A DNA stretch of 30,003 nucleotides from positions 1 through 30,003 of the IMG/VR virus record IMGVR_UViG_3300001866_000030; one strand, written 5' to 3'. The translations under genes and the position numbers were made by a program. How positions within the stretch are numbered: the first letter of the stretch is position 1; each line of letters begins with the position of its first letter. This DNA comes from a virus. Taxonomy: Duplodnaviria; Caudoviricetes. Positions 12,360 through 18,871 of the stretch are shown here, in pieces. The notes beneath the pieces are model-generated. The model searched no databases and had not been told where the DNA came from. It saw nothing but the letters and a program-made list of their open reading frames with translations.

Positions 12360-13199
12360 ATGACACAACAAAACGGCAATGCGCCAGCCACACAGGCGCA
12401 ACAATTGGCAAGCTTGAAAACAACGCTTGCGAGCCAATACAAAAAGCAGATCGAAAACTATTTTGGAGACGAAAAAAAGGCGCTAAAATTCCTTTCTTCC
12501 GTTGTTTCCAGCGTGCAGAGAAACCCCGCACTTTTGGAGTGCGAACCGACCAGCGTGATCAATTCTTTCATCACAATGGCGGAGTTAAATTTGATGCCGA
12601 GCGATGTGAGCGGTGAGGCGTATGTTATCCCATACAAAGGCGTTGCGCAATTTCAATTGGGCTACCAAGGATTGGTAACGCTTTTTTACCGAGCAGGGGC
12701 AAAATCAATCGTTTCCGAGATTGTTTATAAAAAGGACAAATTCAATTATACCAACGGAACAATTGAACACACGCCCGATGTTTTTGCGGAAGATCGAGGC
12801 GAGGCAATCGGCGCTTATGTGATTGTCGAATTGCAAGCGGGTGGCAAGATTTCCAAGGTGATGAAAAAAAGCGACATTGTGGGAATTGGCAAAAAGTTTT
12901 CCAAGTCTTTCAATTCAAGTTTCACGCCATGGAAAGAGGCAAATGACCCCGAGCTTTGGATGTGGAAAAAGACGGTATTGAAACAGGTTGCCAAACTTGT
13001 GCCGAAAAATGAAACAATATTTAAAGCCGTGGCGGAGGATAACAAGGACAGCAACATTGACGACCGAATGGCGAAAGCCAAAGAAGAAAGCGAGAGTTTA
13101 AAACTTGGTAACTTAATTAAACACAACACAAATGAAAACAATGAAAATCAAACCCAAATTGAGGCTTCCGAAAGTGATCAAGAGCCTAGCGGAGAATAA
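12360..13199 (+). CDS. recT: RecT-family single-strand annealing recombinase
   Basis: NPALLECEPTSV, GEAYVIPY, QFQLGYQGL, IGAY and MWKKTVLK motifs; acidic C-terminal tail. Confidence 0.92.
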   Translation: MTQQNGNAPATQAQQLASLKTTLASQYKKQIENYFGDEKKALKFLSSVVSSVQRNPALLECEPTSVINSFITMAELNLMPSDVSGEAYVIPYKGVAQFQLGYQGLVTLFYRAGAKSIVSEIVYKKDKFNYTNGTIEHTPDVFAEDRGEAIGAYVIVELQAGGKISKVMKKSDIVGIGKKFSKSFNSSFTPWKEANDPELWMWKKTVLKQVAKLVPKNETIFKAVAEDNKDSNIDDRMAKAKEESESLKLGNLIKHNTNENNENQTQIEASESDQEPSGE

Positions 13200-15153
13200 A
13201 AAGATTGAGAATTTCCCTTTAAAACATTATTCTTATTCAACTTTTGTCAAATTTTCGACCAACCCGATAATGTTTAAAATCAATTACATTAACGGGGACA
13301 GGATCGAGACGACGCGCAACATTTCGGGCATTGTGGGGCAGGCGTTTCACACCGCGATGGATGTGTATTATACCAACTTTCAGATTGACGAGACCGACGC
13401 AATTAAAGACGGCTTGGAGGCTGGCATGCAGTTTCTTGATTGTTATGAGGATGGATTTATTGAATTTTCAACGACCGTCCCAAATAAGCAAAAAGCGCAG
13501 GAAATATTTGCCTTTGCTTATAATTCATACATCACAGAAAAAAGGAAAGAAAACGAGGAATTGGTAGCGTGCGAAGCAATGATTGAGACCGATGTTGATG
13601 TGGAGTGGAAAGGGCAGAAATTGCGCTTGCCAGTGCCATTGAAAGGTTATGTGGATAAGATTGTGCGACAGGATGGAAAGTTGAAGATAATCGACTACAA
13701 GACCACACGGGCGTTTTCAGATCCCGACAAAATCGACGGGGCGAAAATCTTGCAAGCCGTGCAATATTATTTGATGGTTTTTGCCGAATACGGTGAAGAA
13801 CCCGCATCAATGATTTTCGAGGAAGTCAAGACCACAAAAAACAGAAACGGGGACGCACAAGTGAAAAAATACGAAATAGTTTTTGCCGACAATGATCAAT
13901 TCTTTGATTTCTATTTTCGGCTTTATGAGGATATGACCCGCGCCATTAACGGCGAGATGGTTTTTGTCCCGAACATCCAAACCATCTTTGACAATGAGGT
14001 GGCTATTGTTGCATATATCCACAAGCTGGATGTGAGCGAGGAAGCCAGCCGACTGATGAAAGAGTTGCGGGTGGACAATATAACAGACCTTTTGAAAAAG
14101 AAAATCACAACCGCCAGCAACATGCGAAAGTTGATGAACAATGCCGAGAAAAAATTTGTAAGCGCTAAAAATTTAAATTATAACAAAATGACAACACAAG
14201 AAAAAATCCAAACAAAATTGATGGAGCATGGCATGCTTATTCAGTTTGAGGATATGATTGAGGGCTTTGCCGTTGATTTATACCGTTTCAATCCGTCAAT
14301 CGGGCTTAAAATGAGCAAATTATTAAGCTATGTTGCGGATGTGGAGCAGGTGGTGGGAGTGAGTGGCGTGCGCGTCCTTGCCCCTATTCCGAACACTTCC
14401 TTGGTGGGTTTTGAAGTGCCGAGACAAGACCGCAAATTTCCCGAGAAAGCACCAGCGCCCAAAGGTTTTGAGTTGGCAATCGGAGTGGATATTTACGGCA
14501 AGGATTTGCTTTTTGACATAAGAAAAGCCCCGCATTTATTGGTAGCGGGAGCGACTGGATCGGGCAAATCGGTTTTCTTAAATTCTATCATTTCCCAGCT
14601 TGCCACGCTTTCCAATGTTGATCTTCATTTATTCGATCCAAAAATGGTTGAGCTTTCACAGTTTCGAGCCAACGCGGTGGAATATTACAGCGACATTGAA
14701 AGCATTTATTTAGCGCTTGACCAACTTGTGGCGGAGATGAATGTGCGCTATGGCAGATTGAGTGAGGCAGGCGTGCGAAATATCGACGAATACGAGGGGC
14801 AGATGAATTATAAATTTGTGGTGATTGATGAGTTTGGAGACTTGACCGTGGGAAATAAAAGCGAGGGAAAATTGAATTTTTCCAAAGAGATTTTGAAAAG
14901 CCTTTTGATCTTGGCACAGAAAGCGAGAGCGTGCGGAATTCACTTGATCATTGCGACCCAAAGACCGTCAATCAACATCATTACTGGCGACATTAAAGCA
15001 AATTTCCCGACCAAAGTTGCTTTCCGTTGCGCAAAGTCAATCGACAGTCAAGTTGTTTTGGGAGAGGCGGGAGCGGAAAAATTACTTGGCAAAGGAGATA
15101 TGATTTTTAGTAGCGACAACGGCGACGAAAGATTGCAAGGCTTCAATGTTTAA
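13132..15153 (+). CDS. Fusion of a PD-(D/E)XK (RecB/AddB-like) nuclease and an FtsK/SpoIIIE ATPase
   Basis: N-half: HYSYS, GQAFH, LKGYVDKI, IIDYKT, LQAVQY. C-half: FtsK alpha domain (APIPNTSLVGFEVP), Walker A PHLLVAGATGSGKS, FDPKMVE, Walker B VVIDEFGDL, KARACGIHLIIATQRPS, LLGKGDM. One uninterrupted frame. Confidence 0.9.
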   Translation: MKTMKIKPKLRLPKVIKSLAENKKIENFPLKHYSYSTFVKFSTNPIMFKINYINGDRIETTRNISGIVGQAFHTAMDVYYTNFQIDETDAIKDGLEAGMQFLDCYEDGFIEFSTTVPNKQKAQEIFAFAYNSYITEKRKENEELVACEAMIETDVDVEWKGQKLRLPVPLKGYVDKIVRQDGKLKIIDYKTTRAFSDPDKIDGAKILQAVQYYLMVFAEYGEEPASMIFEEVKTTKNRNGDAQVKKYEIVFADNDQFFDFYFRLYEDMTRAINGEMVFVPNIQTIFDNEVAIVAYIHKLDVSEEASRLMKELRVDNITDLLKKKITTASNMRKLMNNAEKKFVSAKNLNYNKMTTQEKIQTKLMEHGMLIQFEDMIEGFAVDLYRFNPSIGLKMSKLLSYVADVEQVVGVSGVRVLAPIPNTSLVGFEVPRQDRKFPEKAPAPKGFELAIGVDIYGKDLLFDIRKAPHLLVAGATGSGKSVFLNSIISQLATLSNVDLHLFDPKMVELSQFRANAVEYYSDIESIYLALDQLVAEMNVRYGRLSEAGVRNIDEYEGQMNYKFVVIDEFGDLTVGNKSEGKLNFSKEILKSLLILAQKARACGIHLIIATQRPSINIITGDIKANFPTKVAFRCAKSIDSQVVLGEAGAEKLLGKGDMIFSSDNGDERLQGFNV

Positions 15154-15299: not shown

Positions 15300-16100
15300 A
15301 TGATAAAAGGCGGATATTATATCAAAGCGCGTTGCATCCAAGAAAGTGGCATTGCTTTAGCGCCCCCGCATGTAAGGGAAATTTGGGACTGGATTTTGAA
15401 AGAATGCAATCACACGGAAAAAAGAATTGGCGGGACAGTGATCAAACGCGGGGAGTGTATGCGATCTTATAACGATATAATTGATGGCTTAAAATGGCGG
15501 ATTGGCTACCGTGAGGAACGCTACACAAAGAGCCAATGCGAGATTGCAATGAAAGTGCTGAAGAAAGCCACAATGATAACCACAACGAAAACCACACGCG
15601 GAATGATAATAAAGGTGCTTAATTACGACAAATTTCAAGACCCTAGAAACTACGAGAGCCACAATGAAACCGAGACGATAACCACAAGAAAGCCACAACA
15701 ACGCCACACTATAAACAAGAATGATAAGAATGTAAAGAATGATAAGAATGAAATTCTTGCAATTTCCCCTAATGGGGAAAATGCGGAAACGGGAAAAGAG
15801 ATTGAAAAAAAACTTGATCCAGTGGGACAGATATTTGATATTTTTTACAAGACGGTAAACCCAGCGCTTAATTGGGGAAACAAAACCAGCCGATCGAGTG
15901 CGGAGTGGTTGATTGCCAAGTTTGGGCTGGCTAACACCAAGCGGATGGTTGAAATGGCGTGCGCCGTCCAAGGTAAGCCGTATGCGCCAGTAGTAACAAC
16001 CCCCTACCAAATGAAGCTTAAATTGGCGGAATTAAAACTTTATTTTGAGAGGGAAAAGCAAAACAATAATTCATCATTTACAGGAAAAAGCTATGAATAA
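15300..16100 (+). CDS. Phage replication initiator / replisome organiser
   Basis: GGYYIKAR...IKRGE..RS...L.W...IIKVLNYDKFQ N-domain and NKNDKNVKNDKN linker of phage initiators; internal iterons; AAAGGAGG RBS. Confidence 0.8.
   Translation: MIKGGYYIKARCIQESGIALAPPHVREIWDWILKECNHTEKRIGGTVIKRGECMRSYNDIIDGLKWRIGYREERYTKSQCEIAMKVLKKATMITTTKTTRGMIIKVLNYDKFQDPRNYESHNETETITTRKPQQRHTINKNDKNVKNDKNEILAISPNGENAETGKEIEKKLDPVGQIFDIFYKTVNPALNWGNKTSRSSAEWLIAKFGLANTKRMVEMACAVQGKPYAPVVTTPYQMKLKLAELKLYFEREKQNNNSSFTGKSYE
15566..15752. repeat. Iteron-like repeats (putative phage origin)
   Basis: About seven (A/G)CCACA units at 15566-15598 and 15657-15709, followed by four AAGAATG units in 15717-15750. Confidence 0.65.
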
Positions 16101-16524
16101 TCAAATCACAACACAACAAAAATGCGTCGTTATGAGAAACGGGATTGAAGTTTGGCTTAGCAAGGAGGGAGCGGAAGAATTTGAGCAACAGTTGCATGCG
16201 GGAGCGAAAGGATTTGTCCCGCTAAAGGGGCGCACAGTCAACACGGTGGACATCTTGGGGGTTTTCTTTCCCAACGACATGGAGGATCTAACCCGTCGAA
16301 AAAATCGCGAATGGAAATGCAAACATGGGACTTGGCACAATACGGGAGAAAAATGCGTTTGCATCCCAGCGGAAGAAAAGGAATATAGCGAGAAAAGGCA
16401 GGCGCTAATCGAGAAATGCGGGAAGTGCAAGAATGGATGGATTTTGGGAGATAACGGCATGAAAGCGTGCGATTGCGTCAAGGATTTTAATATTTACAAC
16501 TTCCGAGACAAAAAATTTGCATAG
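16093..16524 (+). CDS. Hypothetical zinc-binding replication-associated protein
   Basis: ATG 16093 overlaps the initiator stop; WKCKHGTWH...CVC and CGKC.NGW...CDC motifs; no Walker A. Confidence 0.55.
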   Translation: MNNQITTQQKCVVMRNGIEVWLSKEGAEEFEQQLHAGAKGFVPLKGRTVNTVDILGVFFPNDMEDLTRRKNREWKCKHGTWHNTGEKCVCIPAEEKEYSEKRQALIEKCGKCKNGWILGDNGMKACDCVKDFNIYNFRDKKFA

Positions 16525-17751: not shown

Positions 17752-18158
17752 ATGAAAAATAATAAAGTGCATTTCCTATCATTGAGGCTTGATTGGAAAA
17801 CGCCAAAAGCGGTATATCAAATATTGAACGCAGAATTTAATTTTGATCATGATCCTTGCCCCCCAAAATATGAAGTTGATGGATTAAAGAGCGAGTGGGG
17901 GGGGTTAATTATGTGAACCCGCCTTATGGAAAAGAATTGCCGAAATGGATTGAGAAAGGCTTTGAGGAGTGGCAGAAAGGAAAAACGGTTGTGTTTTTAA
18001 TACCAAGTAGGACAGATACGCGATGGTGGCACGATTATTGCATGAAAGCCACAGAGATAAGATTTATTAAAGGGAGATTAAAATTTGATGATCAACCAAA
18101 TCCAGCACCATTTCCAAGCGCACTAATAATTTTTAAAAACAAAAATGCAAACGATTAA
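17752..18158 (+). CDS. Phage Dam-family DNA N6-adenine methyltransferase, out of frame at a G8 tract
   Basis: From ATG 17752: ...DWKTPK.VY..LNAEFNFDHDPCP...DGLKSEWGG, stop at 17914-17916. The -1 frame continues VNYVNPPYG...WIEK...VFLIPSRTDTRWWH...RFIKGRLKF...APFPS. One extra G gives an intact 135-aa enzyme. Confidence 0.85.
17897..17904 (+). repeat. G8 homopolymer at the frame break of the methyltransferase
   Basis: GAGT-GGGGGGGG-TTAATTATGTGAACCCGCCTTAT. Confidence 0.85.
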
Positions 18159-18268: not shown

Positions 18269-18871
18269 ATGCAAGAAAAAAGAAACGACACATTTAGACG
18301 CTTAAAAGTCAAAGAGGAAAGCGAGACAATTGACCAAAAATCCGAGGAAGTCAAGGAGATCGACAAAAGGATCTTAATGCACATCGTGGAAATGACCTAT
18401 ATGTTGAGCCAAAACAAATTTGCCAACGGGCGGATCGGATATGCGATTGCGCATTGCCAAGTTGTCGAGCATACCCCGTTAAAGTTTTTTGTGATGCAAA
18501 GGAACATCGCGGAGCAATATGAGTTGCCAGCAGTCATTTACAATGCCAAAATTACCGACCAAAATGAGCCGTATGAGGTTTTAGAGCTATGTTTGAGCTT
18601 CCCATACCACAACAGGGCAAAAATTACACGCTACCGCAAAATAGAGGTTGAATATCAGATTGAGGAAAAGGGAAAATTGAGCGCCCCGATCAAAAAATGG
18701 TTTGGAGATTTCATTGCCCAGCTTTTCCAACATGAGATCCAACATTTCGAGGGAGACAATATTTATAATCAATTTTTAAGAGAAAAAGATGATAATAATA
18801 AAACTGCAAAACCAAAGACCGCCAAAAAAACAAAACTTATTGCGAAAAAGGGAGATGCAAAAAATGATTGA
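18269..18871 (+). CDS. def: Peptide deformylase, divergent
   Basis: Motif I GYAIAHCQV (GxGxAAxQ), motif II ELCLSFP (EGCLS), I.RY..IEVEY, motif III AQLFQHEIQHFEG (QHExDHLxG). Confidence 0.8.
   Translation: MQEKRNDTFRRLKVKEESETIDQKSEEVKEIDKRILMHIVEMTYMLSQNKFANGRIGYAIAHCQVVEHTPLKFFVMQRNIAEQYELPAVIYNAKITDQNEPYEVLELCLSFPYHNRAKITRYRKIEVEYQIEEKGKLSAPIKKWFGDFIAQLFQHEIQHFEGDNIYNQFLREKDDNNKTAKPKTAKKTKLIAKKGDAKND

Follow-up and report, generated by a model that had tools for sequence, protein, structure and literature searches.

The DNA analysed here (the window) comprises 30,003 nucleotides of a virus of the Caudoviricetes, positions 1 to 30,003 of IMG/VR record IMGVR_UViG_3300001866_000030. A gene for a RecT-family single-strand annealing protein of 279 aa (recT, 12360..13199, + strand) was identified within it by matches to PF03837 (E 1.4e-35) and phrog_148 (E 9.5e-63), with TIGR00616 scoring 140 bits against a cut-off of 52.65. 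This gene is overlapped for 68 nt by a frame of 673 aa without stops (13132..15153, +), which the frame itself, domain matches and an AlphaFold2 model define as a nuclease-FtsK fusion. The database copy of this protein (P0003) starts at Met4 (ATG 13141), giving 670 aa and an overlap with recT of 59 nt. The downstream neighbour, a DnaD-like replication protein (15300..16100, +; phrog_2514, E 1.3e-17), puts the recT-fusion module in a replication block and is context, lying outside the machine. A large terminase and a portal protein are encoded in the window itself, and scans for promoters and terminators gave results no better than chance.

Pfam matches on the fusion were PDDEXK_1 at residues 33-277 (E 3.5e-15), FtsK_alpha at 346-430 (E 1.4e-10) and FtsK_SpoIIIE from residue 445 (E 5e-32), confirming an architecture of PD-(D/E)XK nuclease, helical linker and FtsK alpha-beta ATPase. 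The N-terminus is occupied by the nuclease and not by the membrane domain of cellular FtsK, and with a top 19-residue hydropathy of 1.4 the protein has no membrane helix. The chain stops with the final strand of the motor and hence lacks a gamma domain; PF09397 (gamma, KOPS-reading) was not matched in the window. The AlphaFold2 model (mean pLDDT 83.9, pTM 0.51) does not fix the placement of the nuclease relative to the motor. The linker (about residues 286-345; 13987..14166, +) was modelled with a low pLDDT of 51-62; its sequence is kept within clade A of the fusions and differs in clade B, and it may serve as the binding site for the annealase tail described below. Misassembly or a chance fusion was ruled out, as one 34.6-kb contig, possibly the source of this DNA, covers the stretch with 0 differences, a contig from another study runs across the junction of linker and alpha with 10 differences (14072-14255) and relatives share the architecture. 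These results bear out the sequence-only reading, which had described a RecT overlapped by a single 673-aa ORF without membrane anchor or gamma domain and had named a stop or misassembly between the domains as what would overturn it.

The nuclease domain (about residues 26-285; 13207..13986, +) was assigned to the RecB/AddB/AdnA/RecE group by PF12705, fold and conservation. Its motifs are D175, D188-Y-K190 (13693-13701) and Q208-x3-Y212, with H73, E148, D175, D188 and K190 unchanged in all 120 aligned proteins (query included). Structural comparison by VIA-align gave Z scores of 15.8 for the AdnA nuclease, 15.0 for RecE, 12.6 for AddB and 8.8 for lambda Exo, AdnA and RecE tying as the closest folds. 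The domain is not of the YqaJ/lambda Exo kind, given this last score and the lack of a match of the fusion to PF09588. No conserved cysteine was seen in the nuclease alignments for a four-cysteine iron-sulphur cluster of the Cas4/AddB type, no solved structure was found by searching with the sequence of the nuclease half, and none of the 44 window proteins matched NurA.

The FtsK alpha domain (residues 346-430; 14167..14421, +; PF17854) carries basic pore-exit residues K393 and K396, equivalent to K377/R380 of Pseudomonas aeruginosa FtsK. The beta ATPase (residues 445-673; 14464..15150, +) was recognised from its motifs, fold and conservation. In its Walker A (residues 473-480; 14548-14571), K479 is the same in all 120 proteins of the alignment (the query among them), while Walker B D566/E567 and the arginine finger R599 are kept in 118, the other two rows being gaps; loop II is also kept (R611, S613, G619 and K622). 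The motor aligned to E. coli FtsK (2ius) over 312 residues with a Z score of 37.0 and rmsd of 2.0, closer than to HerA (Z 20.9), and its kept interface and pore residues suggest a hexameric ring that would translocate double-stranded DNA. The loop-I basic pair of P. aeruginosa FtsK (K657, R661) is S636 and Q640 in this protein. An arginine equivalent to R661 is present in 47 of 48 cellular FtsKs, 5 of 25 clade-A fusions and 3 of 19 other fusions, and with this residue mostly lost the grip on duplex DNA may differ. The K657 position is variable even among cellular FtsKs. Clade A has gained R/K632 (25/25) and K635 (20/25), which are mostly not found in other fusions; the protein of the window has R632 and K635. 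An intact nuclease with a complete FtsK alpha-beta, as originally described, holds for the catalytic residues but not for the loop-I DNA-grip arginine, here Gln640.

DNA leaves FtsK at the alpha ring, and speeds of up to 17.5 kb per second are given for FtsK (accessible part of PMC7321959). The putative exit of HerA is its N-terminal barrel, and 5' digestion by NurA is powered by translocation (accessible part of PMC9960219). As in HerA-NurA, the nuclease of the fusion appears to lie on the DNA-exit face of its motor.

The same domain architecture was found in 119 of the 120 best matches to the N-terminal half, one of these being the window's own protein. Of the 150 top-ranking representatives (50% identity), 77 were fused and 53 passed the stand-alone filter, some of the latter probably being cut fusions; short matches among close relatives numbered only six, mostly on short contigs. 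Unfused nuclease relatives do exist, indicating that a fused motor is not a requirement of the nuclease family; their gene context covers two loci (L402 and L285), and the one at L402 sits behind an ERF annealase. In a quick, unrooted tree, in which the long branches L348, L079 and L274 were kept, all 44 sampled fused motors fell on one side of a branch with 99% SH-aLRT support, forming their own branch outside the cellular FtsK sample. The tree does not place them within a set of 31 Patescibacteria FtsKs, and a recent capture of a host FtsK was rejected on this basis. The fused proteins have five or fewer residues after the motor in 72 of 77 representatives, as against 108-220 in 30 Patescibacteria FtsKs. 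Two relatives have an insertion inside Walker A, one of which Pfam calls an intein, and this fits with the ATPase site being needed.

Several relatives were located in Patescibacteria and one in Rhodopseudomonas, with none among 50,697 GenBank phage records. The Rhodopseudomonas palustris copy (WP_107357228.1) is assigned to a prophage and, if real, would give access to a host in culture. A profile of the N-terminal half matched one of 401 genomes in a phylum sample around a Saccharibacteria genome, the match being a stand-alone nuclease of 299 aa. A pattern scan of genome contigs returned ordinary cellular FtsKs only; its patterns came from the motor and it is therefore uninformative on fusions in genomes.

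An annealase was found upstream of the fusion in all 94 scoreable locus clusters, spanning three annealase groups, and since these loci were collected by fusion queries the linkage is not circular. YqaJ was detected in none of 47 fusion-bearing phage genomes as opposed to 2/2 controls. The fusion likely stands in for lambda Exo, RecE or YqaJ beside RecT; both the link to recT and the occupation of the usual exonuclease slot had been anticipated from the window alone. A tyrosine integrase scored above cut-off in only 3 of 47 genomes and a serine recombinase was found in 0 of 48, and so some of these phages may persist unintegrated. Supply of gamma by a separate gene was rejected, this being seen in one prophage (G402) with no gamma domain in the other 47 of 48 genomes.

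The RecT tail has a motif at residues 235-252 (13062..13115, +), ending LKLGNL, which from its co-variation with the partner is predicted to be a docking site for the fusion. The family consensus is DRxxxAxxESxxLKMGNL, and the motif lies clear of the overlap between the two genes, stopping 16 nt short of the fusion's first ATG. An LxMGxL tail was present in 86 of 90 clade-A partner clusters, across three annealase groups, and in 0 of 11 YqaJ partner clusters, by motif patterns that were written after inspecting these same sequences; the tail pattern also occurs in 7.3% of shuffled tails. Among the RecT proteins paired with the other fusions (second clade), 17 of 18 had a different motif. The RecT at L295 is 75% identical to the core of this RecT, yet is paired with YqaJ and lacks the motif. 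The annealase tails appear to track the partner and not the annealase core, and it is predicted from these sequence patterns that the fusion docks its annealase via a short matching tail. A ribosome-binding or overlap artefact is disfavoured, as the tail codons vary synonymously and the distance from tail to nuclease domain ranges from 91 to 593 nt. Tail and partner adjoin, and may be swapped as one DNA block. The partner-specific tail, the unfused nuclease relatives and the loop-I residue loss had all escaped the sequence-only reading.

Taken as a whole, the fusion is probably an ATP-driven end-resection partner that loads the neighbouring RecT. The alpha-beta domains would assemble as a ring which, being without gamma, would have no sequence guide and would load at DNA ends or non-specifically. 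DNA would then move from beta to alpha and emerge on the side of the ring that carries the nuclease domains, where the 5' strand would be digested. Tethered by its LxMGxL tail, RecT would be put on the 3' strand and anneal it in genome circularisation, repair or recombination-dependent replication. The original proposal of a single-chain, ATP-powered resection machine feeding RecT gains from the annealase linkage, the absence of YqaJ and the exit-face nuclease, and is weakened by the unfused nucleases and the lost grip residue. RecE is a tetramer; six nuclease domains on a ring would match neither this nor the lambda Exo trimer. A broader and more tentative proposal, given somewhat less than even chances, is that a widespread phage lineage has domesticated FtsK as a single-chain ring that pushes duplex ends into the nuclease crown it carries and that recruits any annealase with a short, portable C-terminal docking tag, the tag having been carried onto three annealase groups. 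This would be an ATP-powered phage counterpart of HerA-NurA and RecBCD.

It could also be suspected that the module is the same but that the nuclease resects alone, like RecE, the motor being an accessory for delivery to ends, clearing of proteins or movement of branches or forks after annealing. FtsK displaces proteins from DNA, and no DnaB-type helicase was found in the 48 genomes. The unfused relatives (one of them with ERF), a nuclease fold as near RecE as AdnA, the altered loop I and the flexible-looking linker are in its favour. This is nevertheless thought unlikely, as almost every close relative retains the fusion, with a linker conserved per clade, and as the polarity sets the nuclease where pumped DNA emerges.

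Still less probable is that the chief task of the fusion is to destroy the DNA of the host or of competitors, thereby providing nucleotides or keeping rivals out, with recT adjacent only through a shared early replication block. Patescibacteria, where several relatives occur, are largely without nucleotide synthesis, and the scarcity of tyrosine integrases fits this view. A nuclease with a captured FtsK is a known theme of conflict systems, as in DndH and related proteins (accessible part of PMC10853773), and the motor part matches the PADLOC models for SspH and mad8. These matches are confined to the ATPase, covering only residues 384-665 of the fusion with models 1561-1766 positions long, and the fusion itself lies in a phage replication block. 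The view accounts neither for the annealase kept in 94 of 94 clusters across annealase replacements nor for the missing YqaJ or the partner-specific tails, and, as judged by eye, the fixed neighbours included no methylase-coupled or self-protection partner. A role of the motor in phage genome segregation, export or packaging, in the style of cellular FtsK, TraB/TcpA or a packaging ATPase, with the nuclease as resolvase, is very improbable: the true FtsK alpha-beta, the 44 of 47 genomes without a tyrosine integrase above cut-off, the lack of serine recombinases and the gamma gene of G402 would suit it, but the missing membrane helix, gamma and ParA-type ATPase (0 of 48 genomes) disfavour segregation, which had been offered as an alternative, the window's own terminase and portal rule out a packaging motor, and the annealase linkage is left unexplained.

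As a probable ATP-driven resection partner of RecT, the fusion resembles several known systems. Like Red and RecET, it pairs an annealase with a conserved adjacent PD-(D/E)XK nuclease with an intact active site; unlike lambda Exo with Red-beta, Rac RecE with RecT, or YqaJ with RecT, the nuclease is no stand-alone subunit but is fused to an intact 330-aa FtsK ATPase. The annealase tail is a short motif with an acidic stretch after it, in place of the three-helix bundle of two-component recombinases. HerA-NurA likewise has an FtsK/HerA-family motor with a nuclease at its N-terminal DNA-exit face (accessible parts of PMC9960219 and PMC7321959), but consists of two chains with a HAS barrel and NurA instead of one chain with FtsK alpha and PD-(D/E)XK, and in archaea and Deinococcus is paired with RecA/RadA, whereas the fusion is phage-encoded and goes with an annealase. 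Cellular FtsK/SpoIIIE shares alpha and beta, Walker A and B, the arginine finger, loop II and the pore-exit residues, while the fusion lacks membrane anchor and gamma and has mostly lost the loop-I arginine. AdnAB, AddAB and RecBCD also carry this nuclease fold and an ATP motor on a single chain, but that motor is an SF1 helicase, as opposed to a ring-type FtsK with an N-terminal nuclease, no iron-sulphur cysteines and phage origin. DndH, other HerA/FtsK capture proteins, SspH and HerA-DUF4297 also combine nuclease and captured ATPase, some with FtsK alpha (accessible part of PMC10853773), yet those of the DndH/SspH type are large proteins of host defence, encoded in operons for modification or defence, and the fusion has 673 aa, belongs to a phage and is linked to an annealase.

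Exonuclease-annealase pairs for recombineering use passive, ATP-independent exonucleases. Literature searches returned no description of this fusion, although subscription papers and supplements might mention one. FtsK is unmentioned in the accessible parts of the Cas4/pfam12705 survey (PMC5704561) and, by term search, of the annealase library paper (PMC12054835); as far as their accessible parts go, PMC8190038 concerns a gamma-terminase fusion and not nuclease-FtsK, and PMC7824862 holds nothing relevant. Were the nuclease fed by the motor, the system would offer a new way of making long single-stranded tails and would test whether an FtsK ring can become a resection engine. A tool for long-fragment recombineering is also possible in that case, this use of the pair being speculative. 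The tail motif would provide a rule for pairing annealases with partners, and the fusion a molecular marker for Patescibacteria phages, of which few have been characterised.

The window carries most of a tailed phage genome, with genes for tape measure, distal tail, large terminase, portal, scaffold and capsid proteins, and is contained in a 34.7-kb contig (L206). RecT, assigned by profile matches, is encoded at 12360–13199 and is overlapped by 68 nt by a stop-free frame at 13132–15153 (59 nt from the second ATG, which is the start of the database copy). As the sequence-only reading had described, this single ORF encodes a PD-(D/E)XK nuclease domain (residues 33–277), a helical linker, FtsK alpha (residues 346–430) and, in its C-terminal part, the FtsK ATPase. 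Its claim that membrane anchor and gamma domain are missing was also borne out, with no membrane helix found in the protein and the chain stopping where the motor stops. A stop or misassembly between the domains, the doubt raised at that time, was checked as well: the frame is open, one contig (possibly the source DNA) covers the whole region with no difference, a contig of another study bridges the linker–alpha junction and no joints or indels were listed for the region in four runs. Downstream lies a DnaD-like replication gene, followed by a gene for a 159-aa protein (16045–16524) with no match in family searches; several relatives likewise have a comparable small gene after the replication gene (by eye). 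A short Dam-type methyltransferase match at 17895–18158 covers only part of the family model, the gene being possibly broken or frameshifted, and a peptide deformylase-like gene at 18269–18871 (PF01327, E 2e-17) is phage-encoded.

When the N-terminal half was used as query, 354 proteins of similar length were returned, with both domains present in 119 of the 120 listed, the window's own protein included. A search for shorter forms gave six matches, every one on a contig of less than 3.7 kb. A profile search of 50%-identity representatives yielded 152 matches at E values up to 1e-30; the motor was present in 77 of the best 150, and in 72 of these 77 it is followed by five residues or fewer. No relatives were found among 50,697 GenBank phage records. 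The frame is broken in five loci, by an in-frame TGA (L037, L198, L218), a frameshift (L239) or a stop close to where the contig terminates (L249). The nuclease-FtsK fusion is real and conserved, a family and not an accident. A quick tree of 102 motors included 44 fused ones (25 of the 67 clade-A proteins, drawn at random, and all 19 others), all of which fell on one side of a branch with 99% SH-aLRT support; clade A, which contains the window's protein, had 95%. The fused motors did not nest among the 31 FtsKs of Patescibacteria.

The linkage of homologues to recT, on which the sequence-only reading leaned, was found throughout. The 178 loci fetched with fusion queries formed 99 clusters at 90% identity, including the window's own contig; five had too little upstream DNA, and in 94 of the 94 scoreable clusters an annealase is encoded upstream, mostly abutting or overlapping and at most ~1.2 kb away. 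By BLAST, 92 complete annealases form groups of 70 (RecT-like), 19 (Bet-like, with Pfam RecT over cut-off in all 19) and three (two with PHROG RecT-like matches, one by BLAST, E 1e-27). Searching in reverse from RecT, the family nuclease was located downstream in 59 of 79 loci, with the motor in frame in 56. YqaJ, one of the usual nuclease partners of RecT, was detected in none of 47 fusion-bearing genomes and in both controls; searches of 48 genomes found no ParA-type ATPase, no serine recombinase and no DnaB helicase, and a tyrosine integrase exceeded the cut-off in three of 47. A separate FtsK gamma gene occurred in one of 48, a prophage with a 90-aa frame bearing this domain (G402:C1:29015–29179) ~4 kb downstream of the fusion, which could guide the motor by sequence in trans or have no connection with it. 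In another locus, an HNH-like gene (by eye; L230:940–1476) stands between recT and the fusion, with the RecT tail motif retained.

The nuclease residues H73, E148, D175, D188 and K190 are invariant in all 120 aligned rows, the query among them. The predicted N-terminal half (pLDDT 90.3) matched the AdnA nuclease (Z 15.8, rmsd 3.6, 225 aligned), the putative exonuclease 3l0a (Z 15.3) and RecE (Z 15.0, rmsd 3.4, 197 aligned), which tie, with lambda Exo weaker (Z 8.8). The motor matched E. coli FtsK with Z 37.0. In a motor alignment with the numbering of PMC7321959, the fusion retains the arginine finger, loop II and the two pore-exit residues. The loop I arginine, however, is present in 47 of 48 cellular FtsKs but only in five of 25 clade-A and three of 19 other fusions, a loss that weighs against an unchanged FtsK grip on DNA; clade A has acquired basic residues at positions 632 and 635. 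In two distant relatives (P0195 and P0302) Walker A is interrupted by a large insertion, which in P0302 is an intein with an HNH domain by Pfam.

The annealase tails of clade-A partners carry DRxxxAxxESxxL(K/T)MG(N)L and then a variable acidic stretch. In a set of 172 annealases grouped into 128 clusters, with patterns composed post hoc on the same sequences and relatives that are not independent, LxMGxL was present in 86 of 90 clade-A partner clusters (RecT-like 69/72, Bet-like 16/17, third group 1/1) and in none of 11 YqaJ partner clusters (six Pfam-confirmed, five assigned by eye); the pattern also matched five of the 38 non-A clusters, in each case within the annealase core and before the tail begins. 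LDAxGPAxGxxxH is the tail motif in 17 of 18 RecT partners of other fusions and was found in no clade-A or YqaJ partner of the 128 clusters, and four non-RecT partners of other fusions have neither motif. Partner labels are interleaved on a tree of RecT cores. Two RecTs with a YqaJ partner, L295 (core 75% identical to that of the window) and L300, lack the motif, and in L060 and L333 an A-like core is combined with the other kind of fusion and the other tail. The fusion linker also changes between clades in step with the tail. Tail and partner could have been exchanged as one block of DNA; the synonymous codon variation in the motif and the varying distance from it to the nuclease (91–593 nt) argue for selection acting on the tail peptide.

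A clade-A prophage (L235) adjoins gyrB and nusG, whose 90% clusters are named Nealsonbacteria, Minisyncoccales and Paceibacterota; another prophage (L260) lies beside rpsD and rpoA, the latter at most 63% identical to genes of the phylum sample within which it was compared. Both prophages start directly after these host genes, with recT within ~1.5 kb and a tyrosine integrase at the opposite end of the record. Other homologues are named Patescibacteria and Collierbacteria. One clade-A fusion (L036:4001–6163) is identical to WP_107357228.1, filed under Rhodopseudomonas palustris, which reflects either a host range that is truly wider or a problem of assembly; this species is a possible cultured host outside Patescibacteria. 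A clade-A phage of 29% G+C (L198:3172–5923) reads through TGA, and its RecT has TGA at conserved positions where relatives carry Trp, pointing to a putative TGA = Trp code. Close RecT relatives with YqaJ as the next gene (L313, L316 and L326) have TGA where Gly is conserved, and a third tail motif, with VADLL at its end, is common to them. TGA encodes Gly in Gracilibacteria and Absconditabacteria. A stand-alone 299-aa nuclease relative lies on the minus strand of a 0.6-Mb genome (L285:1462–2361; G144), next to a DsbA-like gene (by eye).

Even when gamma is missing, FtsK alpha-beta assembles into hexamers, through which DNA travels from the beta side and leaves at alpha (PMC7321959). Because the nuclease of the fusion precedes alpha in the chain, it would be placed where the DNA emerges. 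For HerA-NurA, DNA putatively leaves through the N-terminal HerA barrel, and translocation powers the digestion of the 5′ strand (PMC9960219). It is considered reasonably probable, by this analogy, that the fusion is a one-chain counterpart of HerA-NurA: DNA would pass from beta to alpha to a nuclease positioned at the exit face, DNA ends would be resected and the 3′ strand would be handed to the tethered annealase. The main rival, in which the recombination module is the same and the motor only accessory, is judged rather unlikely; in its favour, 53 of the best 150 of 152 representatives pass a filter for stand-alone nucleases (some probably being cut fusions), one unfused relative follows an ERF annealase (L402) and that of the 0.6-Mb genome has neither partner seen within 3.8 kb. 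Destruction of host DNA, with a precedent in the FtsK-capture defence proteins (PMC10853773), would leave the annealase linkage unexplained and is held to be improbable. A role in segregation or packaging is very improbable for a protein with neither anchor nor gamma, in genomes where no ParA was found.

On the features tested, the fusion fell outside cellular FtsK, Cas4/AddB and HerA-NurA, with the last of which its geometry is probably alike. No description of a nuclease-FtsK fusion was found among the openly accessible papers searched. The system resembles Red and RecET in its partner and place but differs in its fused motor. Fusion and annealase together represent a new variant form of the exonuclease-annealase system, with an inferred mechanism.
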